Positions 27,350 through 44,276 of a stretch of DNA of 64,000 bases are shown here, in pieces. The DNA lies in the NCBI GenBank assembly GCA_046349655.1, contig JAXMBY010000012.1, positions 50,405-114,404 of the forward strand. The letters are read 5' to 3'. How positions within the stretch are numbered: the stretch's first letter is position 1; the number at the start of each line of letters is the position of its first letter. The stretch is from Planctomycetota bacterium (GTDB lineage: Bacteria; Planctomycetota; B15-G4; JAXMBY01). A program made the position numbers and the translations under genes. The notes beneath the pieces are model-generated. The model was not told the DNA's origin. It saw only the letters and a list, made by a program, of their open reading frames with translations, and ran no database searches.

Positions 27350-27526
27350 GGACCGGGATCGCAGCTTGCGATGGCCGACGTGATCAGAACATACCTATAC
27401 CGCATCGACGTCGGATGGAACCTTCGCGTGACTGCGTCGCGGCAAGACGGCGGAGCATCATCGCGACCGAACCGGCAAGCCTCGGCATGCCGTCCGCGTC
27501 CTCGGCGTTCGGACGGCGGGACCGTG

Positions 27527-28360
27527 ATGGCGACCCCGAACGGCAGGGATGCGCGCCGGATGATCCGGAGGCTGCAGCACGAGATCAAGGCATGGCGGGA
27601 CTTTGGCCTGGACGCCCTCGTGCTGATCGCTCCCGAGCATGCGGCGCCGAGGTCGCCTCGACCAGGGCCCGAAGAACAGGAGGCGGCCGTGCCGCGGCGA
27701 GCACCGGGGCCAAGGCCCGACCAAGAGGACCGGGAAGTCGAGCGCAGCGTCGCGATCCAGCCCGTGCTGTTCGACTCGCAACCAACCTCCTCGCGCGATG
27801 CCGAGATCGCCTCGCACGAGCTGGCGAAGGTGGTTGCGTCCTGCACGCGCTGCAAGCTGCACCAGGGTCGCACGCAAACCGTCTTTGGCGAGGGACCGCT
27901 GGGGGCCGACCTGATGTTCATCGGCGAGGGCCCGGGAGCCGACGAAGATGCCACCGGCCGGCCGTTCGTGGGACGCGCGGGCCAGCTGCTGACGAAGATC
28001 ATCGAGGCGATGGGCCGCCGGCGTGAGGATGTCTACATCGCCAACGTGGTCAAGTGTCGTCCGCCGCAGAACCGCACGCCGGAACCAGACGAGATCGGCT
28101 CGTGTCTGCCCTATCTGCAGGAGCAGATCCGACTGGTGCGCCCGCGGCTGATCTGCACGCTCGGTGCACCCGCGACCAAGACGTTGCTCGGCATCACCAC
28201 CTCCATGAGCCAGGCCCGCGGCAAGATCTACAAGCTGGGCACGATCCGCGTCGTACCGACGTTTCACCCGGCCTACCTCTTGAGAAACCCTGCCGAGAAG
28301 CGCAAGGTCTGGGAAGACGTGCAGCTCATCAACCGCCTGCTCGCCGGAAACGGCGGTTGA
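27527..28360 (+). CDS. Family-4 uracil-DNA glycosylase with N-terminal extension
   Basis: The last 277 aa of track ORF 26345..28360, from ATG 27527. It has [39 protein letters not shown] and HPAYLLRNP. About 100 aa of low-complexity sequence precede the core. Confidence 0.85.
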
Positions 28361-28446
28361 GCGGCAGGACCATTGCCTCGCGCAACGGGTGGGTTACTCG
28401 AAGCAGAACGTACGGCTAGACCAGCACAACGTCGACGAGGTTTCCT

Positions 28447-29951
28447 GTGCAGTGTTCCTGGGGAGTGGATCTATCGGACGGCGCGCTCGTCGCGGTGCGA
28501 CTGACACGTCAGCGCGGCCGTTACCAGGTGCTCGAGACTCGAGTGCTGCCGATCAGCGGACCCGGTGAATGCGCAACCGAGCCGCGCGAGGCACTGAACG
28601 ACGTGCAGCGCGAGGGAGTGATGCGCTTCCTGCGCGACGTGCGGCCCTCGCCCCGCGACCTGCTGTGCGTCGGCTATCCGGGACTTGCCGTTTTCCAGCG
28701 AGTGCTGTCCCTGCCCCCGGTCCCCGAGCATCGCATCGACGAGACCGTTGCGTTCGAGCTGAACCAGCTGCGCCCGTTCGACACCGAGGATCTGCTGGTG
28801 CGCCGCCGCATCCTCGCGCGCTCGCATCGCGCCACCGAGCTGCGCACCATGGTCGCGGCAACGCCGCGCCAGCAGGTGCTCGTGATCGGCGAAGACCTGC
28901 GCAAGCTCGGCATGCGCGTCGATCTGCTGGAGCCAGAGACGATCGCGCTCGCCAACTTCCTCGACTGGGAACGACCGGCGCCGCTGCCGTGCATGGCGCT
29001 CCAGATCGGCCGGATGCGGACCGACCTCGTGTTCCTGGCGCCGCATTTCGTGTTCACGCGCGCTTTTCCCTATGGCGCCGGCGCCATCCTGAAAGACGCA
29101 CCCGAGCCGCCCCAGGTGGACGACCTGGCTCGCCGGCTCGTGCGGGACCTGCGCGCAGCGCTCGGTGCCGCGTTTGGCGACGCAAACGCCCTCGCCGGAG
29201 ATCGGTTGTTCCTGCTGGGTGCCGGCGCCAGCTGCCAGGTGCTGGTGGCGAGCCTCGGCGAGCAGCTCGGCCTCGCCGCCGAGCCGCTCCGCGAACTCCG
29301 TCGCCTGCATCTGCACCCGCGCCTCCAGCGCTCGCATTCGGTCGCCGCGGTCGCCCGCATGGGGTCGGCCATTGGCCTCGCGCTGGCGGGTTTCGACGCC
29401 GGCCAGCTCGGGTTGCCACTGGTGCCCATCAGCGAGGCACGCCGCGCACGCAGCCTCGCACCGATGACGGCGGGTGCCGCCCTGGTGGCGTCGGGACTGC
29501 TCGTCCTGCTCACGTCGCACGAGGTTCGCCAGAAGCGCATTTACGAGGCGGCGCTCGCCGACGCCAGCCCTGAGCGCAGCGCGTCCCTGCACCAGCAAGC
29601 CCTCGGCCTCGATGCCCGACTGCAAGCTGCCAGGGCGCAGGTCGACCTCCTCGAGCGCACCGCCACCGCGCCGTCCTTGATGCTCCGCCAGATGCAGTCC
29701 TTGATCGAGGCGATGGCGAAGGAGCTGCCCGAGTGCCGCCTGCTGCACTTCTCCTGCGGCGCTCTCCGGCCTCGCCCGTCATCACCGGCGAGGCCCGCTG
29801 CACCATGACGAGCGGCGCCGTCACTGCCACCGAGCAGCGGCTGCTGGAGCTCGCCGCCGCGCTCGAGCTCGGAACGCCGAAGGTCACGCGCGGCACCGGC
29901 GCGACGGCGCCCGCGCTCTTGCTCGATTGGCAGGTGGAGGTACGAGGTTGA
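28447..29951 (+). CDS. PilM-like actin-fold domain fused to PilN-like TM/coiled-coil protein, one apparent 1-nt deletion
   Basis: GTG 28447. The first 330 aa or so resemble PilM (WGVDLSDGALVAVRL...LLEPETIALANF...LLGAGAS). Then come TM LAPMTAGAALVASGLLVLLTS and a coiled-coil. The frame of ORF 29733..29951 continues with PVITGEARCTMTSGAVTATEQRLLELAAALE...LLLDWQVEVRG. The join is at the CCC run 29775-29777. Confidence 0.7.
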
Positions 29952-30742
29952 GACCGATCTTGCTGCTCAGCGCGCTCGCGCTCCTGTGCAGCGCCGCGGT
30001 GTTCGTGCAGACCGGCATCCCCGCTGCACAACAGAACGGAGCGGCTCGCGATGAGCTCGCCAACCGCATGGTCGAGCTCGAGCGCGCCGTCGACGACCCG
30101 ACCGCATGGGTGAGCGACGCCGCGTTGGGCCGCCAGCGTGAACGGCTGGTGCGTGCGGAGAACGCGAGTCGCCAGCTTGCCCAGCAACTGCTGGCACCCA
30201 AGCAGAGCTTCGCGGCATTCCTGGTGTCGCACGAGGGCCCATTGCCGGGATTCAACGGCGGGCGTGAGGATCAGTATCTCGAGCTGGCCAACCAGACGCT
30301 CGCGCTCGCCGCACGCGGCGGCATCCAGACCGGCCAACCGTTCCTCGAAGTGCGCAGCGGCGAGGAGTTCAGGGCCCTCGGTGAACCCGAGCAAGAGGCC
30401 CTCTTGCAACGAGCCTTCCTCGTCTACCGACTCATCGACCAGCTGTCGCGATTCCGCGTCAAGGACATCCGCTTGCTCGACATCGCCGCGGTTGCGGACA
30501 ACGCCTATGCGCCCACCGCCACCCCACACAAGGTGACGGTGATGTTCGCGTGCCCGGTCGAGGACGGCTTTGCTGCCATTGCCGGCTTCTTCACCCTCGC
30601 GCCGCCGCCCCTGTGCGATCTGGTCTCGATTGCCGTCGATCGCCTGGAGCCTGCCGACCTCGGCCTGTCAGCCATCGACTTCGCCGCACCGCCGGTGCTG
30701 TTCCGCTGGGAAATGAGCTGGCTCTCGAACGCGTCGCCATGA
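29948..30742 (+). CDS. PilO-like bitopic membrane protein
   Basis: TTG 29948 overlaps the upstream stop (TTGA), with GGAGG 8 nt upstream. MRPILLLSALALLCSAAVFVQ is followed by a coiled-coil and then an alpha/beta C-domain. The assignment rests on position and architecture, not on motifs. Confidence 0.5.
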   Translation: MRPILLLSALALLCSAAVFVQTGIPAAQQNGAARDELANRMVELERAVDDPTAWVSDAALGRQRERLVRAENASRQLAQQLLAPKQSFAAFLVSHEGPLPGFNGGREDQYLELANQTLALAARGGIQTGQPFLEVRSGEEFRALGEPEQEALLQRAFLVYRLIDQLSRFRVKDIRLLDIAAVADNAYAPTATPHKVTVMFACPVEDGFAAIAGFFTLAPPPLCDLVSIAVDRLEPADLGLSAIDFAAPPVLFRWEMSWLSNASP

Positions 30743-30807
30743 TCTGATCGCAGCTTGATGGAGCTCGTCTAACGCCTTTCCAGCCAGGACTTTTCGGGGC
30801 AATCCAC

Positions 30808-31887
30808 GTGGAGCGAGCGACGGTGATTCTGGTGTTGACATGCCTGGTAGGCGCTCTTATAGTCCTGCCCCTCAAATTCTTGAAAGATCACGCACACGGT
30901 GATTCGCTCGCGGCACGCACGAGCTCTCTGGCGAAGCGACTCGACTCGGTGAGCAGCGATCGCGCGACCCCCGACGACAAGGTCCCGTCGATCGCCGATG
31001 TGCTCACCATGTATCGCGAACGACCGCGTCTGCTGAAGGATGGCAGCCGCGCGTTCTTCGAAGCGCATGAGGTGAAGTCTTTTGCCGAGCGCGCGGAGGC
31101 AACGGGTGAGTTTCGGCGCATGATCTTTCCGCCGCTCGAGCTGAGCGGCGAGGTGGCTGTCGGCGCAGTGAACCTGGTCTGGGTGGGAAATCCGCGCAAC
31201 GATGCGCTGGGGCAGAAAATAGGCAGCGATTCGTTACTGACGATCGGCTACCAAATATACCGCTGGACCAAGGGTGGCCATCCCCAGGTCATTGCCAAGA
31301 CGAGCCTTGCGAACACGGCGTTCGCGGACGACACGATCGGATCCGCGAAGGTGGAGTACTTCTACAGTGTGTTGACCGTGCTCGAGGGTCGGGTGGGTGG
31401 TGCACCCACCGTCATCGAGAGCGAGCGGTCGAACGTGCTGCGAGTGGTGACCAAGGAGGCGTTCACGCTCGAGGTGCTTCGCGCCCTGCAACCGGATGCG
31501 GGTGGAGGAGGAGCGGCGAGCGCGCCGGTTGATGGCGCCTTGGTGGCGGTCGTGGTGCCGACGGGCGAGCACAGCGAGCGCCGGGAGTTCTTGGTCAGGG
31601 TAGGAGAAACCATCGGGGCGGTGGCGGGGGTCGCGCCAGGCGTGCGGCAGAGCTTCGAAACCGGCCTCAAGCTGGTGAGCGTGCAGGAGATCGAGGAAGA
31701 GAAGGCGGTCGACGTCGCGCGAGCCTTGTTCGACCCAGACGGCCGTCGCAGTCTCGACAACGACGGGCGCCCTGCGTTCGAGCGCGGATCCAGGCTGGCG
31801 CGCATGCGCCATGTGGAGATCGTCACGACGGATGCCCTGGGCGAGCGGCGGGTGTTCTCGAGTCCGGCCGCGGTGCAGGGCTCCTGA
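30808..31887 (+). CDS. Membrane-anchored protein with fibronectin-III-like domain (occupies the PilP position)
   Basis: GTG 30808; N-terminal anchor VILVLTCLVGALIVLPL. The FN3-like pattern is AVNLVWVGNPRND...IGYQIYRW...TAFADDTIGSAKVEYFYSVLTV. Confidence 0.55.
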   Translation: MERATVILVLTCLVGALIVLPLKFLKDHAHGDSLAARTSSLAKRLDSVSSDRATPDDKVPSIADVLTMYRERPRLLKDGSRAFFEAHEVKSFAERAEATGEFRRMIFPPLELSGEVAVGAVNLVWVGNPRNDALGQKIGSDSLLTIGYQIYRWTKGGHPQVIAKTSLANTAFADDTIGSAKVEYFYSVLTVLEGRVGGAPTVIESERSNVLRVVTKEAFTLEVLRALQPDAGGGGAASAPVDGALVAVVVPTGEHSERREFLVRVGETIGAVAGVAPGVRQSFETGLKLVSVQEIEEEKAVDVARALFDPDGRRSLDNDGRPAFERGSRLARMRHVEIVTTDALGERRVFSSPAAVQGS

Positions 31888-31981
31888 TCGAGAGCACCGT
31901 GATCGCGATACGCCCAGACAGATGATTCCAAGACGAGGTCTCGGCAACCTACCCCAGAAGCTAAACGTCTGACGGAGACAC

Positions 31982-34576
31982 TTGCCTGCCATGCCAAACA
32001 AGCCGGAAACAGTTGCGGAGCCTCGCTTCCGCTGGTCTGGTCTTGCCCTCTCCTCGGTCCTCGCGATGGCGCCGTTCTTCGGCTGCCAATCGGTGGGGAC
32101 GCCGGCGGACGAGCCCGCGGCCCACGCCGACCCTGGGCCGGCACCGGCCCTCCAGCCCGCACGCCAGGAGGCGAAGGGGCAGGCGCCAGGCCAGGCGGCC
32201 AAGGTCGTCACGGACTTCATCGAGCTTGGCAAGAAGCAGCTCGGCGAGGGTCAGCTCGAGGCAGCGCGGAGCAGTTTTGCCGGCGCCTTGCAGCTGGATC
32301 CGGCGAACGCCGAGGCGAGCAAGCTGTTCGAGCAGGTGACCGCTCAGCTGGCCGAGAAGGGCACGAGCGTGCCGGAGATCGCCGAGACGACGCGCCAGCG
32401 CGAAGAGGTCAAGCGCGCTCAGGCGCGGCTCGAGGCGCAGCGCAAGATGCAAGTGGGCGAGGAGGCCGCCGCGCGCGGCGACTTCGATCAGGCGATCCGG
32501 CAGTTCGAGGACGCCCTCATCATCGTGCGGTGGAATCCGTTCCTGGCCGAAGGCGCGCTCGCCGAAGCCGAGCTCCAGCGCCGCATCGACGCCACCCGGC
32601 GAGCCGCCGAGGATGCGGCGCGCGCGCGCGATGCCGAGGTGCAGGCCCGCGCTCTCCAGGAGCAGAAGGAGAAGGAGACCGAGGAGCTGCAGCGGGTCGA
32701 GAATCAAATCAAGCGACTGTTCGCACAGGCCAACGAAGCATTCGGGCGGGAGCACTACGAGGAAGCCCAGGGCTACACCGAGGAGATCCTCAAGCTCGAC
32801 CCGAGCAACACTGACGCCGAGAAGCTGCGCAATGTCGCGAGCCACTCGCGCCATCAGGCCTCCGAGCGCAACCTGAAGGCGCAGTACAAGCGGGAATGGC
32901 GCAAGATCTTCGACGACCTCACCTACGACAACCTGCCGCAGACGGACCTGATCACGTTCCCGAGCGATGACGCGTGGAAGCGCATCAGCGAGCGTGGGCC
33001 GCTCGTGTTCTCGATCGAGCAGCAGAAGATGGCGCCCGAGGATCAGGACGTCCTGAACAAGCTGCTCGAGACCAAGATGTCGATCCAGTTCGAGGACACG
33101 TCGCTCGAGGACGCGGTGAACTGGTTCCGCCAGAACACCGGTCTGCAGTACTGGGTGTCGCCGAAGATCGCCGACAGCGGCGAAGCCGTCACGTTCAAGG
33201 TGCGTGCGGGCCCGCTGAGCGCGAAGCGTGGTCTCGACATGCTGAAGGAGTTCTCGCAGGTGCCGATCAACTGGAAGGTGGAGAACGGCATCGTCAAGAT
33301 CATCACCGCCGAGGAAGCCAAGGGCGGCCAGATCCTGCAGATTTACGACGTGCGCGACCTGACCAAGACGATCTCGTCGTTCCCGTCGAAGGACTTCAAC
33401 CTCACGCCGTCGGGCAAGGTCGAGGACATCGCTCCGGAGAAGGAGCAAACCCCGGCGCCCATCGTCGTGGAAGCGGAGAAGCTGCAGGAGCTGATCACCC
33501 AGACCATCGCCCCGAGCAGCTGGAAGGCCGACCCGAACAACACCATCTCGGTGGTGTCGGGCGCCCTGGTCGTGCGGCAGACCCCCGAGGTGCACGCCCA
33601 GATCGATGCACTCCTGCGCGACCTGCGCGAGAATGCCGGGACCTTGATCAACGTCGAGACCCGGTTCATCACCGTCAAGGACAACTTCCTCGAGGACATC
33701 GGCGTCGACTTCCGCGGGCTGAACGGCCAGAACGGCGGCGGCACCGCCGCCATCCCCAACGTTCCGCTCGATGACTTTGGCTCGTCCACCACCGGCGTCG
33801 GCACGCCGAGCACGCCGAGTGGAATCGGCACGGGCAACGACTCGGGTGCGTTCTACTCGGAAGGCAAGAAGGACTTCCGCGGCCGTCTCGAGAACCTGTT
33901 CGACCTCACGCTCGGCAACAGCGACATCGACAACTCGGGTGGCCTCGCGCTGCAGTTCACGTACCTCGACGATACCAAGCTCGAGGCGATCTTGCGCGCG
34001 GTCGAGAAGAGCGAGACCGCGAACATCGTCAACGCGCCGAGCCTCACGGTGTTCAACGGCCAGCGGGCCAACATCAACGTGATGAGCCACGTCTCCTACG
34101 TGCGCGACTACGACGTGGAGATCGCCCAGGGCTCGGTCGTGGCCGACCCGGTCGTGGACGTGATCCGGGACGGTTCGATCCTGGACGTGCGACCCGTGGT
34201 GTCGGCCGATCGTCGCTTCATCACCATGGAGCTGCGTCCCACGGTCGCCAACCTGCCGCGGCCCATCCCGACCTTCCAGACCTCGCTCGGCATCGGCAAC
34301 GACGTCGTGCTGCAGTTGCCGGAGCTCGAGATCGAGCGGGCCCGCACGACGGTCACGATCCCGGACGGCGCCACGCTCATGCTGGGCGGGCTGAAGTTCA
34401 CGCAGAACAAGGACTTCGATTCGGGCTTGCCGTGGTTGAAGGACATCCCGATCATCTCCTTCCTGGTCAGCCGCAAGGGTACGTTGGAAACCAAGAAGAA
34501 GTTGCTCATCCTGGTACGTGCGAGCATCGTCATACCGACCGAGCGAGCCGCCACGCGGGCGACCGCGATCCGGTAG
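31982..34576 (+). CDS. Secretin (GspD/PilQ family) lipoprotein with TPR/coiled-coil N-terminus
   Basis: Lipobox LAMAPFFGC. Helical TPR-like repeats run to about aa 300. The N0-like domain is MSIQFEDTSLEDAVNWFRQNTGLQYWVSP. The secretin domain is NAPSLTVFNGQRANINV...VTIPDGATLMLGGL...GLPWLKDIPIISFLV...LLILVRASIV. The start is TTG 31982 or ATG 31991. Confidence 0.85.
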   Translation: MPAMPNKPETVAEPRFRWSGLALSSVLAMAPFFGCQSVGTPADEPAAHADPGPAPALQPARQEAKGQAPGQAAKVVTDFIELGKKQLGEGQLEAARSSFAGALQLDPANAEASKLFEQVTAQLAEKGTSVPEIAETTRQREEVKRAQARLEAQRKMQVGEEAAARGDFDQAIRQFEDALIIVRWNPFLAEGALAEAELQRRIDATRRAAEDAARARDAEVQARALQEQKEKETEELQRVENQIKRLFAQANEAFGREHYEEAQGYTEEILKLDPSNTDAEKLRNVASHSRHQASERNLKAQYKREWRKIFDDLTYDNLPQTDLITFPSDDAWKRISERGPLVFSIEQQKMAPEDQDVLNKLLETKMSIQFEDTSLEDAVNWFRQNTGLQYWVSPKIADSGEAVTFKVRAGPLSAKRGLDMLKEFSQVPINWKVENGIVKIITAEEAKGGQILQIYDVRDLTKTISSFPSKDFNLTPSGKVEDIAPEKEQTPAPIVVEAEKLQELITQTIAPSSWKADPNNTISVVSGALVVRQTPEVHAQIDALLRDLRENAGTLINVETRFITVKDNFLEDIGVDFRGLNGQNGGGTAAIPNVPLDDFGSSTTGVGTPSTPSGIGTGNDSGAFYSEGKKDFRGRLENLFDLTLGNSDIDNSGGLALQFTYLDDTKLEAILRAVEKSETANIVNAPSLTVFNGQRANINVMSHVSYVRDYDVEIAQGSVVADPVVDVIRDGSILDVRPVVSADRRFITMELRPTVANLPRPIPTFQTSLGIGNDVVLQLPELEIERARTTVTIPDGATLMLGGLKFTQNKDFDSGLPWLKDIPIISFLVSRKGTLETKKKLLILVRASIVIPTERAATRATAIR

Positions 34577-34605
34577 ACGGGCCGAGGTGGCACCGATTGC
34601 TGTGT

Positions 34606-34636
34606 GCAGGGCGCCCGCGCGGCGCCCTGCTTCTTT
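34606..34636 (+). terminator. Rho-independent terminator after secretin 1
   Basis: A perfect 10-bp stem, GCAGGGCGCC (34606-34615) with GGCGCCCTGC (34621-34630), has a 5-nt loop and is followed by TTCTTT. It begins 30 nt after the stop codon. Confidence 0.7.
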
Positions 34637-34647
34637 GACCGGCATGT

Positions 34648-37408
34648 ATGTCGTTCGCCCTGCTTCTCCTCGCGATTGCCGCGGCGCCATCGAAAGACGA
34701 GCCACCGAGCGCCGATCATCGGTTCATCGCCGCCCTGGTCCGCGCCGGTTACCGAGACCTGGCCGAGCGGTACGTGGACACCCGCCCGCGTCTCACACCC
34801 GTGGAGCAGGTTGGTCTGGAGGCGAGCCTTGCCCATCAGCTCGCGCGCGCAGCCGAACGGTTGCCAGACGCCGATCAGCGTGCCCAGCTCGTGCACCAGG
34901 CGCTGATCCGGATCGAGCGCCACGCACACACAACGGAGATCCCTGCCGCGGTGCACCTGGAGCTGCTGCGGGCGCGCGCCGATGTCCTCGCCACCCAGGC
35001 GCGTCACCTCCCATGGCCATCGCTGGTGGAGAGCGACGCTGTCTTCGGCAAGGCGGATCAGGCTCTCATGGAGGCGCAGGAACTGGCAACGGCCAGCGCT
35101 GACGCGAACCAGGCCAGCAATCCCGACGACGCGGCGCGCGATCTCGCCGCCGCTGCTGGCCTGCAGTACGAGCGAGCGGCACTCAACTTCGACTGGGCAA
35201 GTCGATCGCCCGCGAACGCGCCCGCGCGGCGCGAGCGGCTCGCTCATGCGGCAGATTGGGCGGAGGAGTTCCTGTTTGCTTCACCGGAACCCGGCGCGGA
35301 TGTGCCGCTCGCGAAGCTGCTCTGCGGCATGATCCATGCACAGATCTGGCGCGACTCGACGCCGCACGACGCCGACGAGCTGCGCCTTGCGCTCGGTTTC
35401 CTCGATGACGCGCGCAGCGATCCCGCGCTCGGCGTGCTCAGCCTGCTGCTCGACGTCGCATCCCCCGACCAACCGGGTGCCGATCATCTTGCTGCCATTG
35501 CCGAGCAGCTCGCCTGCGAACAGGCGCGCCTGCTGAACGACGCCGGCATGCCGGGCAAGGCGCGCGCTGCGCGCGACCTGCTCGAGCTGGTGGAGCAGAA
35601 GCAGCTGCAAGCCAGCTCCTGGCGCGAGGCGGCGCAGCTCGAGCAAGCGCGCGCCGCCCGCGCCCTGGGCAACCTCGATGAAGCGACACGCCTTGCCGCT
35701 GCCGCATGGAAGGCAGCCTCCGTGCCCGCGACGCGGGCCGCGGCCGAGCAGCTGCTGAGCGAGCTCACCGCCGATCACCCGGCCGCCGATGCCGACGTGG
35801 CACCCGAGCTGCTGCTCACGGCCACGGACGCGCTGCTGGCGTCGGGACGTCTCGATCAGGCGCTCACCACGGCTCAGCACGCCGTGCTGAGCACGCTTCC
35901 GGGCAGCGACGCGCTCCTCACCGCTCGCTTCTGGGCGAAGCTCGGCGACATCTACATCCGCCGGAGCGAGCCCTTGCAAGCGAGCATCGCCTACGAGGAA
36001 GCGCTGCGAACGTCGCCGCCCGGCCGCAGCGACGAGCTCGAGCCGTGGGCTCGAGGCTACTACAACGCGCTCGTGATGCGCGCAGAGCAGACCGGCTCGG
36101 CGTTCGATCGCGCGCGCCAGCGCTCCTCGGCAACCGACCTCTCGCGGCTGGGGCTGCAGCTCGGTGCGAGCCTTGCATTCCTCCTGGCCAAGGAACGCTT
36201 CGCCGAGGCCCGGACGCTGAGCGATGCTGACGAGCGCCGGCGCGTGCTCGCCGACGTGTCGGACGCGCTGGCCCGGGTGGATGCGACGAGCGCCTACTTC
36301 GAGCGTGCCTGGGTCTACCGTGCACGCGTCGCCCATGAGCAGGGTGACCCGGACGGGGCGTTGCGCACGCTCGCCGACTACACCCTGTTCACGCAGCGCA
36401 ATCGTTCGACGCCCGGTGCCGAGCGGCAGAGGGAAGTTGCCATCGCCGAGGCGCGCTACTACCACGCGTCATGGCTCGTGGATGCCGGACTGCGCGCCCC
36501 GCGCGAGAGCGACGATCGGCGCAGCGCCATCCGTGATGCCTTGACCGAGCTGCACAATTTCGCCGAGCACCATGCGGAGCAGCGAGCGCTGATCGCGTGG
36601 GTCGAGCTGACCCGGCTGCGGGCACACGCGGCGCAAGGTGACCTGCCGCAATGCGAAGCCGATTATGCGCGGCTGCTCTTGGCGTCACCATCCGCCGAGC
36701 TGCGCGCCCATGCGACCTTCCAGCTCGGCAGCGCCTATCTCGAGCGCCACCGCGACACCGCCGGGACCGGCGGCGGCGACGTGCGCTTGCTGCACCGCGC
36801 TGCGGAGCTCATCTTCGAGCACTGCGAGCAGGCAGACTTCCCGGATGCTCAGAACCTGAAGCGGACGGGCGACTGGTTCTTTGCGAGCGGTGACTTCGCC
36901 CTCGCCACGCGGTCCTATGACACGCTGCTCGAGCGATTCTCAAGAACACCCGCGACTGCCGACCTGTGGGACGACGCGCGACTGCGCCTGGCGCAGTGCG
37001 TCACCAGGATGGGCGACCTCGCCCGGGCAAAGGGGCTGTGGGACGAGCTCCTACCCACTCACCAGACCAGCGTCGCCGCGCTGGAGGGGGCGGCATTGAC
37101 CGAGGGCGGCTTCCTGAGGGTGTGCGACGGACAGGCGCAGGAGGTCGCCGGCGTGGGCGACCGCGCGAAGGCAGTGGCGATGTGGCGGCGCATCCGCAGC
37201 CAGGCATTCGGCAGCCAGGATGAACGGTCCCCACGCTGGTGGAGGTCCGGTCCATTACCTGCACGCCTTGGTCGCCCTGGGCGAGACGGATGCGCGCGCG
37301 CGTCAGCAGGCGGAGTCCGAGCTGCGCATGCTGCGCAGCATCGACGCAGACCTCGGCGGCGAGGCCCTGCGGCCGTCGTTCGCCTGGCTGGAGCGACACC
37401 TGCGATGA
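34648..37408 (+). CDS. Large secreted all-alpha TPR-like protein (~920 aa), one apparent 1-nt insertion near the 3' end
   Basis: Signal-like MSFALLLLAIAAAPS. The frame of ORF 34648 becomes Arg/Pro junk after ...FGSQDERSPRWW. The frame of ORF 37220..37408 continues VHYLHALVALGETDARARQQAESELRMLRSIDADLGGEALRPSFAWLERHLR and stops at 37406-37408. The break is near 37245. Confidence 0.65.
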
Positions 37409-38475
37409 TCCTCCCGGCGCTGTCGATGGTCGCGCTGGCACTGGCTTCGCCCGGCGACGTCATTCACCGTCGCATCGGCCCGCCCCTCGCCGACGTGCAG
37501 GTGATCCACGATGGCCTCGACGGCGTGCGCTACCGGCGCCTCGCCACGCCGGAGCAACGATCGCCGGAGCAATCATTGCCGGCGGATGCCGTGGTGGACG
37601 TCGCGTTCGATCAGCTGCCGGATGACTATGGCGTCGGCATGTCCTTGCTCGCGGCAGGAAGCCTCGGACAGGCGGTCGACGCGCTGACGCGCGCGGTCTC
37701 GGCGGAGAAGCGCGCGCTGGTGTTGCCGACCTTGCGCCTTGCGCTCGCGCGCGCACGCACTGCCGCCGCGTTCGCGGGCCAGGCGGACGAAAGCATGGCG
37801 GTCAAGGAATACGAGGAGCTCGCCGCGCGCTACCCGGACCGACGCATCGTGGTGCCGGCGCTGTTCGAGCTCGCGCGTCTGCATTCGGCGCGCGGCGACG
37901 CCGCATCCGCACTCGCCACGCTGCAGCAGCTCGAGAAGACCACGATCGAGCACCACCTGGGAGCCGCGGCGCTGCTGCGCCTTGCCTACGAGCGAGGGCT
38001 GATCCATCGGCGCGCCGGCAATCTCGAACAGGCCGAGGCGGCGCTGGCGCTGGTTGCCGGCAAGCCCACGCGTGCCGATCCCGAGACCGCCGAGCTCGAG
38101 CAGCTCGCGCGCGTGGCGCTTGCCGACGTGGCCAGCGCGCACGGCCACGCCGAGGACGCGCGCCGGCATCTCGACGCACTCCTGAGCGAGCCCGGCCTGG
38201 CACGCGGCGCGCGCGCGATGGCCTTCGTCTGCCTCGGCGAGCTGGCCTTGCAGGCGGGAGAGCTCGAGCGTGCGGAGCTCGAGCTGCACCGGGTGCTGGT
38301 GCTGTGCTTCGATTGCGACGACGCATGCGCGCGGGCGATGTTCGCGCTGGCGAAACTGTACCGGCAGTGGGGTTCGACGCAGGATCGCGCCGCCGCGTGC
38401 GCCGCCGAGCTGTTCCGGCGCTGGCCTGGCAGCGTCATGGCGCGCGACGCCCGCGCCGCGTGGCCCGGACGCTGA
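37405..38475 (+). CDS. Secreted TPR-like protein (356 aa)
   Basis: ATG 37405 overlaps the upstream stop (ATGA). It has the signal MILPALSMVALALASPG and helical repeats. The track fuses it to the upstream gene as a 1275-aa ORF. Confidence 0.65.
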   Translation: MILPALSMVALALASPGDVIHRRIGPPLADVQVIHDGLDGVRYRRLATPEQRSPEQSLPADAVVDVAFDQLPDDYGVGMSLLAAGSLGQAVDALTRAVSAEKRALVLPTLRLALARARTAAAFAGQADESMAVKEYEELAARYPDRRIVVPALFELARLHSARGDAASALATLQQLEKTTIEHHLGAAALLRLAYERGLIHRRAGNLEQAEAALALVAGKPTRADPETAELEQLARVALADVASAHGHAEDARRHLDALLSEPGLARGARAMAFVCLGELALQAGELERAELELHRVLVLCFDCDDACARAMFALAKLYRQWGSTQDRAAACAAELFRRWPGSVMARDARAAWPGR

Positions 38476-38488
38476 GGAGGTGCCTGCC

Positions 38489-40330
38489 GTGCCGCCTGCC
38501 GCTCTGCCCGCGCACCAGACCACCAGCGCCTGCGCTCTGCTGCTCGCGTGGTCGATCGTGCTCCTGGCCTGCAACCCCTCGCCGCCTTGCCCACCCAACG
38601 TGCTCATGATCACGATCGACACGCTGCGCGCAGACCACCTTGGTGCATCCGGCTTCGCGCCAGCGCACGCCCACACGCTCGACCCGGCTCGCCCGGCAGG
38701 GCTGGTTCTTCGCCGACGCCATGGCGCCGGCGCCACTCACGCTGCCAAGCCACAGCTCCCTGTTCACCGGCCTGCCAGCCGCACGGTGTACGCGACAACG
38801 AGCCCTACCCGCTGCCACCGGACGTGGAGACGCTGGCCGAGGTGCTGCACGGCCATGGCCTCCAGACCGGCGCGGTCATCGGCGGCGAGCCGCTCGCGCG
38901 TGGTTGCGGGCTCGAGCAAGGCTTCGATCAGTACGACTCGCCGGACCGCAGGCACACGGCAGGCTCGATCACGTTCCGGGAGCGGACCGCAACGCCGAGG
39001 TGGCCGCGGCCGGCATGGAGTGGTTGCAAGCTGCACGGCAGCCATTCTTGCTGTGGCTGCACTTCTTCGACCCGCATGCGCCCTATCGGCCGCCAGCTGC
39101 TTACCTCGGCGGCAGCGCGAGCGCCTATGACGGCGAGGTCGCCTACGTGGATGACCAGATCGGCCGCGTGCTGGCCAAGCTCGAGGATCTGCGGCGACGG
39201 GACCACACGCTGATCGTCGTCGCCGCCGACCATGGCGAGTCGCTCGGCGAGCACGGCGAGGCCACGCATGGCTTCCTGGTTCTGAGCACGCTGCGCGTGC
39301 CGCTCCTGTTCTGCGGGCCGGGTGTACCCGCGGCCCGGCGCGACGCGCGCGTGGCGCGGCTGATCGACGTCTTCCCCACGATCCTGCAGGTGCTCGGCGT
39401 CCCCCTCGGCGGATCGTGCCAGGGAGTCTCGCTGATCGCGAACGATCCGGGCGCAGCCATGGGCGAATCGCTCTGCACCGGTCACCACTTCGGCTGGGCT
39501 CAGCTCACCTGCGTGCGCCGGGGGCGCGCTCAAGCACATCCGGGCAGCGAAACCGAGGACTACGACCTGGCTGCCGATCCACGCGAGCAGGAGCCGCTCG
39601 CGCCCGGAGCCGCCCGCGATCAGCTCGCCTCGGGCTTGCCCGCTGCAGAGGTTGGAGCGGATGCCGCCGCGGGCGCCAACGCTGGCTGCGCCGATCGGCT
39701 ACCTCGGCTCGCCAGCGCGCGCCGGCGGCCTACTTCCTGCCCGAAGCCCCGGGGCAGCCCGCCGCTCGCCGCCCGCGTCGATGGCGCTGGCGCAGCACTT
39801 CCTCGAGGGCGTGGAGGCCGCCGGCCAAGCACAGTGGAACCGTGCCCTCGTCGAGCTGAGCGCGGTCCAGAAGGAGGACCCGAGCAACCCGGCGTTCCGC
39901 TGGTGGACGGCGCGCGCGCTCGAGCAAATCGGCGAGCACGAGCATGCGCCGGCGATGGTGCAGCAGGCCGTCGACCTGTATGACGGGCTTGCCGGCGAAG
40001 GGCAGATCGACGCGCTCAACCTGGGGCTCAAGGCGCGCAGCTTCGGGCTCGGCCGTTGGCAAGAGGCGATCGCGCGCGGCGAATCGACCTTGAACGCGGG
40101 CATGGGCAATGCCGACACGCTGCGCGTGCTGGGCCTGATTCACCTGGATCCGCACAATCCCGCGCGGAACGTCCAGCGCGGTCTCGACCTGCTGCGCCAG
40201 GCAGTGACGCAGCGACCGGACGATCTGCCGGCGTTACAGGCGCTGGAGGACGCATACAAACGCCGGCCTGGAGGACCTTGCGCGGGCGACCGCCCGGGAG
40301 ATCGAGCGGCTGGAGGCAGGAGCGAGGTGA
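38489..40330 (+). pseudogene. Sulfatase-like hydrolase/transferase (alkaline-phosphatase superfamily, Thr-type) fused to C-terminal TPR; at least 6-7 frame breaks
   Basis: GAGGAGG is followed by GTG 38489. The lipoprotein leader is ALLLAWSIVLLAC. Motifs are spread over three frames: NVLMITIDTLRADHLGA / RLARQGWFFADAMAPAPLTLPSHSSLFTGL / HGVRDNEPYPLPPDVETLAEVL / FLLWLHFFDPHAPY...VVAADHGESLGEHGE / ALKHI / EDYDLAADPREQEPL / LGYLG...TPR / GLEDLARATAREIERLEAGAR, with the stop at 40328-40330. Confidence 0.7.
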
Positions 40331-40632
40331 TCGTCGTGGGCTGATCGCCGGCGGCGAAGAACCGTGGCCCCGTCATCTCGCGACCGGACGAGCCACCTGG
40401 TCGGTGCAGGAGCCAGGCGCCCTGGCGGCAGGAGTTCTTTTGGAAAGGCCTTTTGACCTGCCCCTCACCCGCGGTAACATGCGGCCCAATTTTCCAAACG
40501 CTCGAGATCCGCTGAGAGACTTCGCGCTCGCAGCTCACGCAACCGAACACGCTCGCGTCTGGCTGCCAGCCAGACGCCCCCAACCCGGCCCGGTCTCGTT
40601 CGGGCTGGTTCAGTCGGAAGGACGGAGAAGAA

Positions 40633-43251
40633 ATGGTTTTCCGAACCCCGGGACGTTGGTCGCGCCTCGGCGCTTGTTGCCTGCCTGGTCTCGCCCGCAC
40701 TTTGGTTCGTGTCGTGCGCCACGACGCAGGACCTGCCAGGCTCGCCCGGCGCCGACCCGGCCACGGCGGCCGCCGACCCGCGGACCCCCGCCACTCTGTC
40801 CCAGCAGCAAGAGAAGGCCGACGCCGGCGGCGACGGCCTCCAGGACGAAGAACCGCATCCTGGTCGAGCGAGCGCTCGCCAATGCCAAGGCAGCCGTCGA
40901 ACAGAACGATCTCGCGCGCGCCGAGAATGAACTGATCGAGGGGCTGAAGATCGACCCGCAGAACGATGCCATCCAGAAGGAGCTGGCGCGGGTGCAGGAG
41001 CTGCAGGGCAAGCGACCGGGCGAGGTATCGGCGTTGCGTGAGGCAGCCGAGCAGCGCTACGACGAGATCGCCGGCAGCAGCTGAAGCGCGAGGCCGAGAC
41101 GACTACGAGTCGGGCGTGGCGCAGATGGAGAAGGAGAGCAGCTACGACTCTGCCATCCGCTACTTCGAGACGGTGCTGAACCACATCCAGTGGTCGTCGA
41201 TCAACGTCGATTGGGGCGACCTCAAGGACCGCGCGACGCGTTCGATCGAGCAGGCCAAGAGGTCACGCGACGAGGCTCACGAGAAGCAGATGAAGGCGGT
41301 CGAGGAAGAGACCCTGACCCGGCTGCGCGACGAGGAAGAGCGCGAGCGTGCGCGCCAGCAAGCACGCATCGATAACTTGACCGTGGCGGCGGTCGACGAG
41401 TTCCAGGCGCGCCGCTTCGACAAGGCAGAGGATCTCGCCAACGAGATCCTCAAGCTCGATCCGAAGAACGACCGGGCCAAGGACCTGCTCGAGTCGTCCG
41501 AGCAGGCTGCGCGCAAGCAGCGCGGCGCGGACTACATCCGCGACCGCACGGAATCCTACCTCAAGTGGAAGGAAGACATCGAGCGCACCCGCGTGCCGCA
41601 GCACGACATCCTGCAGGGTCCCGATGCCGCCTTCTGGGAGGAGATCTCCCGCATCCGGGGCTCGCAGCGCCGCCTGGGCCTGGAGCAGCTCGAGGATCCC
41701 GAGACGCAGTCCTTGCGGCTCAGCTTGAAGTCGCAGCGCATGCCCGCCAACTTCGAGGAGGCGAGCATCGACGACGTGGCGAACACGATCACCACCCTCA
41801 CCGGCATCCCGGTGAACATCGACCCCGAGGTACGCAAGGAAGTCACCGATGCCGGCCAGACCGTGACGCTCAAGAACCTGAACAGCGTCACCGTGGAAGC
41901 CTTGCTCAACATCATCACGCGCCAGCTGGGCGAAGGCCTCACGCACACCGTTCGGCACGGCACGGTGATGATCACCAAGAAGGAGAAGGCGTACGGCGCG
42001 CCGATCATCAAGACGCATCCGGTGCAGGACATCACGTTCGGCTTGCAAGACTTCAAGGGACCGAAGATCGACCGCATCACCCTGCCGGGCGCCCAGGAGC
42101 AAGAGGAGGGCCCTGGCGTGTTCGGTGGCGATCTCGAGAAGGTCGTGATCATCTCGCCCGAGGACGTCGTGAATCTGATCAAGGAGAACATCGCCCGCGA
42201 GACCTGGGATCAGGAACAGTACAAGTGCGAGGTGGCCACCAACAACCAGCTGCTCGTCATCCACACGCCCGAGGTGCAGACGCAGATCGCCGAGTTCCTC
42301 GATGACTTGCGCCGGTTCTCGAGCCAGGTGGTCACGATCGAGAGTCGGTTCGTCGCCGTGACCGACGCGTTCATCCAGGAGATCGGCAGTGACTTCCGCG
42401 GTCTCGGCGGTGAGTTTGGATCGAACGTCACGCTCGACGACCTGACCAACGGACTCGAGGACAAGACCTCGCAAGGCCTGGACAACGAGGGCTCGGGATT
42501 GACCGGTGCCTCGCCGTCCTCGGGCGTGTTCTTCAACGACAACAGCGACGGCGATATCCGCGGACGATCGGAGAACTTCTGGGCCAACCCGCTCGGCAGC
42601 ATCCTCTCCACCGTGGGCGGCGGCTCGTTCCAGTTCGGATTCCTCGACGACACCCAGGTCAACCTGGTGCTGCGCATGATCGAGAAGTCGGTCAATGCCA
42701 CCGAGATCAGCGCGCCGATCCTGACCGTGTTCAACACCGAGCGCGCCTACTTCACCAACATCAACGAAGTCTCCTATCTGCAGGACTTCGACGTCGATGT
42801 CGCCAACACGGCGTTCATCGCCAACCCGCAGGTTGGCGTGATCCAGGAAGGCATCGTCCTCGACGTCCGCCCGACGATCTCCTACGATCGCCGGTTCATC
42901 ACCCTCGAGATCCAGACCACGGTGGCCAATCTGAAACGGCCGATCCCGGAGTTCGAGACCTCGCTCGGCGGCTTCTCGGTGCCGATCCGATTCCAGCTGC
43001 CCGAGATCGACGTCTCGAGCAGCTACACGACGGTCCAGGTTCCAGACGGCGGCTCGATCATCATGGGCGGCATGAAGAAGATCCGCTACGTCAACCGCAC
43101 CGCAGCAATCCCGTGGTTCTCGAAGATCCCGATCGTCGGCTTCTTCTTCCAGTCGAAGGGCATCGATGACGAGGTCCAGAACCTGATCGTGCTGGTGCGG
43201 GCCCACATCACGGATCTCAATCCGCTGCGCGAGTCGAGAGCGGCCAAGTGA
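40633..43251 (+). CDS. Second secretin (GspD/PilQ family) lipoprotein with coiled-coil/TPR N-terminus; about 4 frame breaks in the first 470 nt
   Basis: The body is ORF 40966..43251: N0-like MPANFEEASIDDVANTITTLTGIPVNIDP, and secretin domain SAPILTVFNTERAYF...VQVPDGGSIIMGGM...AIPWFSKIPIVGFFF...LIVLVRAHI. The N-terminus is pieced from ATG 40633 (MVFRTP), the frame with RASALVACLVSPALWFVSC (lipobox), the frame with KNRILVERALANAKAAVEQNDLARAENELIEGLKIDPQND, and RQQLKREAE. Confidence 0.8.
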
Positions 43252-43460: not shown

Positions 43461-44276
43461 ATGGCCGAACAAAACCTGCGCGCCATCTTCTTCGACATCG
43501 ACGACACTCTGTTCTCGACCACGGAGTTCGCCGACAAGGCCCGACGCAACAGCATCCGGGAGATGATCCGCCATGGCCTCAAGATGGACGCCGAGGAGGC
43601 GCACAAGGAGCTGAAGGAGGTCATCACCGAGTTCAGCTCGAACTACCCTCACCACTTCGACAAGCTGCTGAAGCGCATCCCCACCACGTTGTACGCGGGT
43701 CTCAATCCGGCGGTGCTGATCGCCGCCGCGGTGGTGGGATACCACAACACCAAGAAGGAGCTGACCGCCTATCCGGACGTGATCGAGGCGCTCGAGCTCC
43801 TTTCACGAACCAAGCTCATCCTGGGCGTCATCACCGCCGGGCTGGAGATCAAGCAGGCGGAGAAGCTCGTGCGCATGGGACTCGTGAAGTACCTCACCCC
43901 TACCGCGATCTTCATCTCGGACCAGATCGGGATCTCCAAGCCCAACGTGAAGTTGTACAAGGTTGCGTGCTCGTCGCTCGGTCTCGATCCGCGCACGGCG
44001 ATGTACATCGGTGACAATCCCACGAATGACATCGATCCGCCGAACCGGCTCGGCATGATCACGGTGCGGGATCTGCGCAGCACCCGGCGGCGCGACGAGA
44101 AGGGTGAGACCGAGCCGCGCTACGAGATCAACAACTTCCACGAGCTGCTCGACATCGTCGAGCGCGATTTCGGCATCCCACTGCCGGGCCGGCGCAACAA
44201 GATGAAGCGAGCCACTCGCGAAACCAGCATCAACGAGCAGCAAGCACGCAAGACCAGGGCTCAGGGGCACGATTGA
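43461..44276 (+). CDS. HAD-superfamily hydrolase (subfamily IA-like) with basic C-terminal tail
   Basis: Motif I FFDIDDTLF, motif II GVITAG, motif III KPN, motif IV YIGDNPTNDI. Its GC is visibly lower than neighbouring genes. Confidence 0.8.
   Translation: MAEQNLRAIFFDIDDTLFSTTEFADKARRNSIREMIRHGLKMDAEEAHKELKEVITEFSSNYPHHFDKLLKRIPTTLYAGLNPAVLIAAAVVGYHNTKKELTAYPDVIEALELLSRTKLILGVITAGLEIKQAEKLVRMGLVKYLTPTAIFISDQIGISKPNVKLYKVACSSLGLDPRTAMYIGDNPTNDIDPPNRLGMITVRDLRSTRRRDEKGETEPRYEINNFHELLDIVERDFGIPLPGRRNKMKRATRETSINEQQARKTRAQGHD

Follow-up and report, generated by a model that had tools for sequence, protein, structure and literature searches.

Organization of the locus

The window, meaning the whole 64-kb stretch of DNA that was analysed, contains a locus of 14.8 kb which, with its flanking genes, comprises the following features.

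24613–27126, minus strand: upTPR, a large TPR protein (Pfam TPR_19 at 3e-21 and other TPR families)
27521–28360, plus strand: family-4 uracil-DNA glycosylase (UDG), upstream flank (59% identical to its counterpart preceding the related locus L006)
28447–29951, plus strand: M, PilM-like cytoplasmic domain, TM helix and periplasmic tail (PilM_2 at 1.7e-4; frame change near 29752)
29948–30742, plus strand: O, bitopic protein with TM helix, coiled coil and Amuc_1100/PilO-type fold (Foldseek on AF2 model)
30808–31887, plus strand: X, N-terminal TM anchor and two beta-sandwich (FN3/Ig-like) domains (AF2, Foldseek), in the PilP/GspC position
31982–34576, plus strand: SecA, intact lipoprotein secretin with TPR/coiled-coil N-terminal region (Pfam Secretin 2.8e-27, TPR_2 3.7e-9)
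34606–34630, plus strand: intrinsic-terminator-like hairpin (10-bp stem with 9 GC pairs, then TTCTTT)
34648–37408, plus strand: T1, signal-peptide TPR protein of ~920 aa (TPR Pfam matches; frame change at 37245–37253)
37405–38475, plus strand: T2, intact signal-peptide TPR protein of 356 aa (orthologue HMM positions 19–374 of 381, E 1.9e-33)
38476–38488, no strand: T2-F junction of 13 nt, the site of ExbB-ExbD-ExbD (~1.9 kb) in relatives
38489–40330, plus strand: F, lipoprotein with sulfatase-fold (alkaline-phosphatase superfamily) domain and C-terminal TPR (Sulfatase 4e-30, TPR_16/19; five frame changes)
40633–43251, plus strand: SecB, second secretin with TPR N-terminal region (Pfam Secretin 1.6e-22 over 40966–43251; two or three frame changes in the first ~450 nt)
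43461–44276, plus strand: HAD-type hydrolase, downstream flank (TIGR02253 at 176 bits, above the cut-off of 169.75)

An earlier note on this DNA listed the locus genes in this order, placed a terminator after the first secretin and judged the set non-canonical for pilMNOPQ, all of which is supported here. In most related loci a UDG gene lies upstream of SecA (PF03167 was matched by the gene call of locus L082) and the HAD gene follows SecB. The upTPR gene, which gives weak NCBIfam matches of PrsT, PilW and Tgl type, occupies an equivalent position in ~20 of the related loci, so that its conservation is partial, and it may or may not belong to the system.

Secretins and inner-membrane module

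SecA is the lipoprotein secretin described in the note, with the lipobox FFGC in its translation. Its best NCBIfam match is Amuc_1098_fam (1.7e-30, aa 134–711), and against the PDB it matches secretins from 2e-10 and BfpB at 6.7e-4. SecB is a 34% identical paralogue whose best NCBIfam match is TIGR02517 GspD (1.3e-23, below cut-off). Its Secretin domain and TPR N-terminus agree with the earlier description of a second lipoprotein secretin, but the gene cannot be read continuously, since orthologue HMM positions 96–169 match in frame 0 (40842–41063), positions 179–893 in frame 1 (41092–43239), and the lipobox signal peptide is readable in frame 2.

M is a predicted fusion of the PilM/N or GspL type. 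Its weak PilM_2, pilM and Amuc_1101 matches come from 28447–29760 (in NCBIfam, 4.1e-20 for Amuc_1101_fam and 5e-8 for pilM, neither reaching the cut-off), and positions 10–438 of the 521 in the orthologue HMM match 28435–29727. The PilM-like domain of the fusion proposed earlier is thus retained, but not its single ORF: the uninterrupted PilM frame stops at 29808 and the PilN-like tail lies in another frame from ~29752, where the coding signal switches. Orthologues of M are intact and 516–529 aa long. M and O share the TTGA overlap previously noted, at 29948–29951. No Pfam or NCBIfam match was obtained for O, and a search of 1.84 billion representatives detected only two homologues, one of them encoded between M and X in L082. 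In a Foldseek search with its AF2 model (pLDDT 70.8) each of the ten highest-ranking matches was an Amuc_1100 structure (E 5e-6 to 5e-5), and PilO came next.

The AF2 model of X (pLDDT 73) has strands at 110–227 and 243–351, and its best Foldseek matches are tandem FN3/Ig proteins (E 1.5e-4); a profile search against the PDB gave the Fn3-like 3mpc (E 0.021). Neither PilP nor GspC occurs among the Foldseek top 50, and no PilP or GspC HR domain was detectable. The model is therefore not that of an ordinary PilP and agrees with the FN3-like domain that the note had placed in this position. In 20 of the fetched loci an orthologue of X directly precedes SecA.

Genes between the two secretins

T1 gives a weak YbgF TPR match and T2 weak matches of YbgF, PorW and BamD type. 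Of the two TPR proteins proposed at 34648–38475, the TPR assignment and the ATGA overlap at 37405–37408 hold but the continuity of T1 does not: the interval is mechanically one ORF, yet orthologue HMM positions 30–889 match in frame 1 (34666–37245) and positions 893–943 in frame 2 (37253–37405). The sulfatase-TPR fusion likewise keeps both its domains and loses its continuity, the frame of F changing near 38661–38689, 38775, 38995, 39623–39667 and ~40262, and the orthologue HMM is matched successively by pieces in frames 2, 0, 1, 0, 1 and 2. In the orthologues of F a P-[LI]-T-L-P-[SA]-H motif is conserved where C/S-x-P-x-R would be.

Conservation of the cluster

As judged from comparative sequence analysis, the locus is one genome's copy of a gene cluster shared by a large clade of Planctomycetota and present in well over 100 genomes, and the idea that it is an oddity of the window was rejected. 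Across ~240 fetched Planctomycetota loci, including those of Saltatorellus ferox and Engelhardtia mirabilis, TPR-secretins of SecA and SecB type occur in fixed order, typically bounded by the UDG and HAD genes, and SecA precedes SecB in 132 of 133 two-secretin loci. The predicted core consists of two TPR-secretins, in many cases lipoproteins, that arose by an ancient duplication. Among 161 secretin-seeded loci, 57 have an ExbB/ExbD cassette after SecA, 45 have the two secretins in tandem and lack TPR and stator genes, and two have TPR genes without ExbB/ExbD.

Similarity of SecA places the window in a clade of 20 members with M-O-X genes, of which L082 is the closest to it (SecA 56% identical; none closer was found). 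In this sub-clade M-O-X has been added ahead of SecA, and the sulfatase-fold enzyme ahead of SecB. The genes beyond the terminator do not vary freely among relatives, the SecA-T1-T2-...-SecB order and strand being kept at SecA identities of 37–56%. This conservation down to ~37% identity, together with the reciprocal and, in the loci examined, exclusive link between ExbB and the secretins, argues against the quite unlikely explanation that a pilus secretin operon, a Tol-like system and a type II-type secretin are unrelated neighbours on a shared UDG-HAD backbone; the terminator after SecA, gaps of 400–550 nt around the cassette in Saltatorellus, housekeeping flanks as conserved as the cluster and modular content between the secretins would all fit such an arrangement. 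A literature search found no published description of this cluster. The cluster thus appears to be undescribed, and the window locus a stator-less variant of it whose function is proposed from sequence.

Motor genes

In L006, L082 and other loci the T2-F position is occupied by a MotA_ExbB gene (9e-28) and two ExbD genes (1e-19 and 6e-14), whose best NCBIfam matches are TolQ and TolR, with scores far short of the curated cut-offs. Roughly half the informative loci have T1-T2-ExbB-ExbD-ExbD between the secretins, and the closest ExbB orthologues with enough flanking sequence have a secretin on both sides in 45 of 45 cases, S. ferox and E. mirabilis included. A tblastn search with the relatives' proteins against the whole 64 kb found neither ExbB nor ExbD. 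Because the cassette is present in all other sub-clade members for which enough sequence is available, its absence here is a derived loss, and the lack of a motor stressed in the note is not a property of the system but an exception within the sub-clade. Coupling of T1/T2, secretins and stator is not obligatory, since 45 tandem loci lack the TPR and stator genes.

Genes for an ATPase, platform protein or pilin are missing from the window, as had been observed: the ORFs scanned gave no Pfam match to T2SSE or T2SSF, and a six-frame search of the whole window found neither GPTGSGKT nor a prepilin motif. PilB/PilC/pilin-type genes are commonly encoded at other loci. Cultured Saltatorellus-clade strains whose genomes carry the cluster are reported to have PilB and PilT (10.1101/817700). 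For both reasons, absence within 64 kb is not unusual and constitutes weak evidence.

The note had suggested that these genes could form a distinct outer-membrane/periplasmic machine, which on this reading would be self-contained and work without any motor. The combined absence of ATPase, platform, pilin and ExbB/ExbD genes from the 64 kb is compatible with this, as are the tandem loci, which likewise lack motor genes in the flanks fetched. We nevertheless consider it highly improbable, given that the absence is derived within the sub-clade, that the analysis covered no more of the genome than the window, about half of a 118.8-kb contig, and that M has a PilM-type cytoplasmic domain. Such domains of PilM and GspL bind cytoplasmic ATPases.

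Frameshifts

Some 9–10 frame changes affect M, T1, F and SecB, four genes that the note had read through silently, and the orthologues of each are single intact ORFs in relatives. Outside the locus, ComEC and an M16-like peptidase are frameshifted as well, and the surroundings of frameshifts have a GC content of 0.713, higher than the average of 0.680 (permutation p 0.0007). Most likely they are assembly errors, because they extend beyond the locus and lie in the GC-richest DNA. It is improbable, though not negligibly so, that the locus is decaying and that these four genes became pseudogenes through real frameshifts after stator loss. The missing stator genes, frameshift contexts that are not long homopolymers and a roughly fourfold higher density inside the locus (~9–10 changes in 14.8 kb against ~3–8 in the other 49 kb) favour decay, but the fragments still match their orthologues well (F pieces are 51–61% identical), the correct frames contain no in-frame stops, T2 and F are separated by a clean spacer of 13 nt, and ComEC, the peptidase and high GC content again point the other way.

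Proposed organization of the system

All functional links among the cluster genes are drawn by gene neighbourhood. We think it probable that this is a conserved two-secretin envelope cluster in which the stator has been lost or moved in the present genome, that M-O-X docks on SecA and that the frameshifts are most likely assembly errors. M, O and X would form an alignment-type inner-membrane complex docking on the periplasmic domains of SecA, by analogy with PilMNOP on PilQ and GspL/M/C on GspD, and SecA may provide the outer-membrane channel for a type IV filament or a type II-like machine, with the genes for its ATPase, platform and pilins at other loci. Counting against this picture are NCBIfam scores far under the curated cut-offs (Amuc families, pilM, TolQ, TolR), the lack of a detectable PilP or GspC HR domain in X, the 45 tandem loci, the high frameshift density inside the locus and the absence of ATPase, platform and pilin genes from the 64 kb covered. 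T1, T2, F and SecB would constitute a second transcription unit, stator-coupled in relatives, which here may work without a stator, use one in trans or be impaired.

Possible, but in our view unlikely, is a PMF-driven two-secretin machine independent of type IV pili, of which the window would be a stator-less derivative. The TolQ/TolR-like stator of relatives would then act via T1 and T2 on the TPR regions of both secretins, either gating the channels for uptake or export of macromolecules or tethering and constricting the outer membrane as Tol-Pal does. Such a machine would account for an ExbB subfamily found only between two secretins (all 45 informative loci), for the lack of M-O-X genes near most cassette-bearing loci and for the YbgF/CpoB-type and TolQ/TolR matches, and no published description of such a system was found. 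Against it, the evidence is neighbourhood throughout, a TonB/TolA-like transducer, TolB and Pal are absent from the loci inspected, 45 loci retain both secretins without the cassette, and the window has no stator.

Comparison with known systems

The Amuc_1098–Amuc_1102 'pili-like' cluster of Akkermansia muciniphila (PVC superphylum; PMC5332112; PMC4960237) likewise has a secretin with an N-terminal TPR region, Amuc_1098 (PMC4960237), and its gene listing likewise lacks an ATPase or platform gene. The two loci also share a PilM/FtsA-like protein, an O model fold matching Amuc_1100 crystal structures (6lad, 6laf, 6kny) and a further hypothetical protein between the Amuc_1100-type protein and the secretin, X being likened to Amuc_1099 by position. 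The PilM/N-O-X-secretin half of the locus is therefore not new, as it parallels Amuc_1101/1100/1099/1098, although the window scores far below the NCBIfam equivalog cut-offs and an Amuc_1102 counterpart was not seen. To our knowledge, a second secretin, T1/T2, a TolQR-like stator and a sulfatase-fold enzyme are not known from the Akkermansia cluster.

With type IVa pilMNOPQ the locus shares the order of actin-like cytoplasmic, bitopic coiled-coil and beta-sandwich proteins followed by a secretin, as well as the weak pilM and PilM_2 matches and the resemblance of the O model to PilO (3jc8_O, 2rjz). It differs in that PilM and PilN form a single chain, a TM-anchored protein with two FN3/Ig domains takes the place of PilP, the secretin N-terminus matches TPR families and no AMIN domain in Pfam, and pilB, pilC, pilD and pilA are absent from the window. 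In type II systems, GspL is a single polypeptide with a PilM-like domain, a TM helix and a PilN-like domain, and GspM resembles PilO. M is fused like GspL, and SecB matches GspD best, but all scores are below cut-off, X lacks a PDZ or HR signature, and GspE, GspF and GspG-K genes were not found in the window. Likeness to Tol-Pal (TolQ-TolR-TolA-TolB-Pal-CpoB/YbgF) lies in the relatives' stator genes and the YbgF-type matches of T1 and T2, whereas TolA, TolB and Pal are absent from the loci inspected, the cassette has two or three TolR-like genes rather than one and is flanked by secretins, and the window has no stator at all.

Both secretins of the window, with their lipoboxes, resemble self-piloting lipoprotein secretins of the HxcQ and BfpB type, and their TPR module recalls TPR pilotins (PilF/PilW/Tgl, TadD) and is in the same chain as the secretin. 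These are architecture-level likenesses, the homology detected being that of the Secretin domain (BfpB 6.7e-4). A lipobox and a TPR module within the secretin chain could replace a separate pilotin.

Gene content of the two-secretin locus

In the window (G+C ∼68%), the locus extends on the + strand from M to SecB at 28.4-43.3 kb, in the gene order UDG-M-O-X-SecA-T1-T2-F-SecB-HAD, where UDG (uracil-DNA glycosylase) and HAD (HAD-type hydrolase) are the flanking genes.

Features of the locus (window coordinates, with profile E-values)
Start 28447, +: M, PilM-like part of a PilM/N-like fusion (Pfam PilM_2 1.7e-4; NCBIfam pilM 5e-8, below the curated cut-off)
Start 29948 via a TTGA overlap, +: O, bitopic protein of 264-271 aa
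30808-31887, +: X, 359 aa, modeled as a TM anchor and two beta-sandwich domains
31982-34576, +: SecA, 864-aa lipoprotein secretin (Pfam Secretin 2.8e-27, TPR_2 3.7e-9)
34606-34630, +: GC-rich hairpin of 10 bp with a T-tract
37405-37408, +: ATGA overlap joining T1 and T2, TPR proteins with signal peptides
Start 38489, +: F, lipoprotein combining a sulfatase-fold domain with a TPR tail
Downstream of F, +: SecB, second secretin, with the same layout as SecA (Pfam Secretin 1.6e-22)

SecA and SecB are 34% identical and both belong to the Secretin superfamily (PF00263), scoring 95.8 and 80.3 bits, respectively, against a gathering cut-off of 27.5. The presence of T1 and T2 between them was confirmed with orthologue HMMs (9e-80 and 1.9e-33, respectively), and X has no family match in Pfam or NCBIfam. 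Matches to the T2SSE, T2SSF, prepilin peptidase and pilin families were absent among the ORFs scanned across the 64 kb, and neither a GPTGSGKT Walker box nor a prepilin cleavage motif was found in its six frames. The inventory given in the earlier note is borne out by these searches, both in that its genes are real and in that ATPase, platform, peptidase and pilin genes are missing from the 64 kb.

F is nearest by sequence to the S1 sulfatases and its fold family is Sulfatase (PF00884). A true formylglycine sulfatase was rejected, however, since the nucleophile motif C/S-x-P-x-R is absent, being replaced by T-L-P-[SA]-H in the window and in five orthologues. Within the alkaline-phosphatase superfamily, this is how the threonine nucleophile is arranged in nucleotide pyrophosphatases/phosphodiesterases and in LtaS/EptA-type phosphotransferases and, because of this motif, a phosphodiester would appear a more likely substrate for F than a sulfate ester.

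The M-O-X-SecA module and its Akkermansia counterpart

The best NCBIfam match of SecA is to the Amuc_1098 family (1.7e-30, positions 23-620 of 805; 105.7 bits against a cut-off of 750) and extends over the N-terminal region of SecA as well, while M matches the Amuc_1101 family (4.1e-20; 72.1 bits against a cut-off of 650). The intervening protein, O, has only two homologues (P0014 and P0015) among 1.84 billion representatives, one of them encoded between M and X in L082, a locus from a further metagenome-assembled genome (MAG). The AlphaFold model of O, which is of moderate confidence (pLDDT 70.8, from an alignment of three sequences), combines a TM helix with a long coiled coil and a beta-alpha core. 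In a Foldseek search of the PDB with this model, the first ten matches are Amuc_1100 chains without exception (E 5e-6 to 5e-5, probability 1.0, target-normalized TM-score 0.50-0.57), followed by PilO; as modeled, O would therefore be an Amuc_1100-fold protein encoded between a PilM-like gene and a secretin. Profile-profile comparison of O with the corresponding genes of relatives is weak (probability 20%), and their orthology is supported by the exhaustive search together with gene position. O evolves exceptionally fast, its position and predicted fold being conserved despite the two detectable homologues.

For X (model pLDDT 73), the best structural matches are tandem FN3/Ig proteins, and neither PilP nor GspC occurs in the top 50. 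An alignment of six X sequences gave search patterns that yielded no confirmed genome match, and alignments of 12 X orthologues and of T1 proved too divergent as scan seeds. As regards counterparts of Amuc_1099 and Amuc_1102, X has no match in NCBIfam and the window has no gene between UDG and M.

The interpretation offered in the earlier note is thus upheld in part. Its description of O as PilO-like agrees with the Foldseek result, and its view of X as an FN3-like substitute rather than an ordinary PilP agrees with a model that is TM-anchored and contains two FN3/Ig-like domains. The novelty attached to the M-O-X-secretin half is not sustained, as this half is a PVC-wide theme with a counterpart in Akkermansia, where the Amuc cluster likewise has no ATPase listed (PMC4960237; PMC5332112). 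Nor does the absence of a motor hold as a feature of the system, as described below.

Conservation of the cluster across Planctomycetota

Relatives of SecA were not detected by a single-sequence genome scan, and a word-indexed protein search returned only two real homologues. When an alignment of SecA, these two homologues and SecB served as the seed, a pattern scan across 185,579 species genomes revealed 384 relatives; of the 80 listed, nearly all carry the label Planctomycetota, including the complete genome of Engelhardtia mirabilis Pla133. One metagenome scan added 135 relatives, none above ∼50% SecA identity. Using the proteins of the window and of an intact relative, L006, 161 loci were mapped. 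Tandem secretins in the order UDG-SecA-SecB-HAD were found in 45, and 57 have the order SecA-T1-(T2)-ExbB-ExbD(-ExbD)(-F), with SecB next on every contig long enough to show it. Two loci possess TPR genes without ExbB/ExbD, and the remainder offer too little sequence to be classified.

The cassette located between the secretins consists of a MotA_ExbB gene (9e-28) and two ExbD genes (1e-19 and 6e-14), and the same genes were recovered in L082 by an independent gene call. In NCBIfam they come closest to TolQ and TolR, with scores below cut-off. When the scan was seeded with ExbB instead, a secretin was found on both sides in all 45 of the closest orthologues with enough flank, in the order UDG-SecA-T1-T2-ExbB-ExbD-SecB-HAD, including Saltatorellus ferox Poly30, whose cluster shows no additional gene, and E. 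mirabilis. In some loci (E. mirabilis, L078/L228; L004) a third ExbD/TolR-like gene follows the usual two.

A SecA-type secretin comes first and a SecB-type second in 132 of 133 two-secretin loci; the secretin duplication is therefore old, with both copies retained. Free variation of the genes after the terminator, which the earlier note had named as counting against its proposal, is not seen. The window conforms to this arrangement, encoding SecA and then SecB on the same strand between UDG and HAD. Typical planctomycetal UDG-SecA-T1-T2-ExbB loci also occur in MAGs labeled 'Candidatus Paceibacteria' (L063; JBLIMI010000010.1) and 'Paracoccaceae' (L194; JBLIHL010000003.1), the contigs being probably mis-binned. 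No published secretin and ExbB/TolQ cluster in Planctomycetes was found, an absence of evidence from incomplete literature coverage, and nothing relevant was found on components of planctomycetal crateriform structures; the cluster appears to be undescribed, assembled from known parts.

Absence of the stator from the window

Clustering of 189 SecA sequences placed the window in a clade of 20 members, in which M, O and X precede SecA. F lies before SecB in most of these members, and the relative nearest to the window is L082, with a SecA 56% identical. Every other member of this clade with enough sequence carries ExbB and ExbD. In the window, 13 nt separate the end of T2 (38475) from the start of F (38489), and tblastn with the L006 ExbB and ExbD proteins, which are 50-85% identical to their orthologues in other fetched loci, gave no match in the 64 kb. 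The motor has therefore been lost or relocated secondarily in the lineage of the window, which is the exception in its own sub-clade.

The largest SecA clade is mixed, containing 39 tandem and ∼69 cassette-bearing loci, which indicates repeated gain or loss of the cassette, and that the secretin pair does not require it. Apart from the window, just two of the fetched loci have TPR genes between the secretins but no stator, namely L011 (JACOTG010000214.1; SecA-T2-F-SecB-HAD) and L045 (JACRIN010000091.1; SecA-T1-SecB-HAD). Both are from groundwater MAGs outside the sub-clade of the window, which suggests independent stator losses.

Domain content, fold assignments and gene order with its conservation are shown by the analysis, whereas the scheme of action judged most likely is inferred. 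In it, M, O and X would assemble into an alignment-type complex in the inner membrane, with SecA as its docking partner. SecA would act as the outer-membrane conduit for a type IV filament or a type II-like machine, with the ATPase, platform and pilins encoded at other sites in the genome. T1, T2, F and SecB, located after the terminator, would constitute a second unit, coupled in relatives to the TolQ/TolR-like stator. The main rival to this scheme holds that the complete cluster (SecA-T1-T2-TolQ-like-TolR-like x2-SecB) is a new trans-envelope machine in its own right, in which a stator powered by the proton-motive force, working via periplasmic TPR adaptors, would drive or gate the secretin channels in place of a PilB/GspE-type ATPase; the window would then be a natural stator-less variant. 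The reciprocal and exclusive linkage of ExbB and secretins points in this direction. However, the evidence is that of gene neighborhood, many tandem loci have no cassette, and a TonB- or TolA-like transducer is absent from the loci inspected by eye. Such a machine is the most interesting reading, but a tentative and rather unlikely one.

Interrupted reading frames

Four genes of the locus (M, T1, F and SecB) are interrupted by frame changes in the window sequence; the earlier note gave the gene set correctly and read through these interruptions without mentioning them, and its observation is confirmed in part. The uninterrupted ORF of M ends at 29808 and its PilN-like tail (to 29951) is in a different frame from ∼29752. 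T1 switches frame at 37245-37253, with positions 30-889 of a profile from seven orthologues matched in one frame and 893-943 in the next. F is divided into pieces in frames 2, 0, 1, 0, 1, and 2, all of which match the orthologue profile in the correct order, and in SecB the signal peptide is in frame 2, profile positions 96-169 in frame 0 and the remainder in frame 1. In relatives, each orthologue of these genes is one continuous ORF of the expected length.

Frameshifts are not limited to the secretin locus. The ComEC/Rec2 gene (54385-56785, + strand) changes frame at ∼55875, which separates DUF4131 and Competence from Lactamase_B in the following frame. A region encoding an M16-family (pitrilysin-like) peptidase, as one or two genes (51100-53400, - strand), is readable only across several frame changes, and its Peptidase_M16_C match ends at profile position 54 of 181, at such a change.

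Real pseudogenization of the locus would be in keeping with a frameshift density ∼four-fold higher inside the locus than outside and with contexts that are not long homopolymers. It is nevertheless improbable, and we lean toward technical error over decay as the cause, because ComEC and the M16-like peptidase are also frameshifted, the sites lie in DNA richer in G+C than the window average (0.713 vs 0.680; permutation p ∼0.0007), and the fragments of the interrupted genes are 51-61% identical to their orthologues without internal stops. Homopolymer-type errors as the sole cause were rejected given those contexts, as was programmed frameshifting, since the sites are too numerous, share no common motif and have unshifted orthologues. 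The window holds a stator-less variant of a conserved cluster, in an indel-rich assembly.

Other genes in the window

A ComM/YifB-type Mg-chelatase-like ATPase gene (58053-59603, + strand) lies 1.3 kb downstream of ComEC. The window thus contains DNA-uptake genes as well as two secretins, proteins that make up the pore for DNA entry in competent bacteria. Directly after the HAD gene comes a complete peptide ABC transporter of the Opp/Dpp type (44684-51096, - strand), with two ATPases and two permeases as well as a family-5 solute-binding protein. An Mla-like set on the + strand (6463-11598) includes MlaE (6463-7290), an ABC ATPase (∼7200-8015) and MlaD (8064-8804), downstream of which is ∼3 kb of coding signal ending in a TPR region. 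The coding signal changes frame twice, at ∼8559 and ∼9293, which may reflect frameshifts or separate genes. Envelope and glycan genes at 12468-20451 and 59563-63366 encode a GT4-family transferase, an asparagine synthase, an NAD-dependent epimerase and a PMT_2-type glycosyltransferase, together with two large YfhO-like membrane proteins (17836-20451, + strand; 59563-62097, - strand).

Significance and comparison with known systems

If the secretin pair is truly tied, reciprocally and exclusively, to its own TolQ/TolR-type stator in many Planctomycetota genomes, it would represent a new route for energizing an outer-membrane channel. The finding also bears on how planctomycetes, with their unusual envelopes and macromolecule uptake, move large cargo across the outer membrane. 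The full cluster is open to experiment, being present in the cultured, completely sequenced S. ferox Poly30 and E. mirabilis Pla133. By its predicted fold, O would be an Amuc_1100-like protein that occupies the place of PilO in a distant PVC phylum, which bears on the function of the Amuc_1098-1101 proteins, abundant in Akkermansia, among them the much-studied Amuc_1100. The lesson from the window itself, a derived stator-less copy in an indel-rich assembly, is more modest.

In Tol-Pal systems, TolQ, TolR, TolA, TolB, and Pal are encoded together, whereas the window encodes none of them and the loci of relatives only TolQ/TolR-like genes that score below cut-offs. A canonical Tol-Pal system was therefore rejected, TolA, TolB, and Pal being missing. 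In comparison with type IVa pili, the extension ATPase, platform, prepilin peptidase and pilins are absent from the 64 kb of the window. Cultured members of the Saltatorellus clade, in whose genomes the cluster is present, are reported to encode both PilB and PilT (10.1101/817700), and the absence within 64 kb therefore says little. The secretins score 74.1 (SecA) and 74.8 bits (SecB) against the type IVa PilQ family (TIGR02515), both below its cut-off of 284. In type IVa pili, PilP is a lipoprotein whose HR beta-sandwich binds the N0 domain of the secretin, whereas X is anchored by a TM segment and is predicted to carry two FN3/Ig-like domains.
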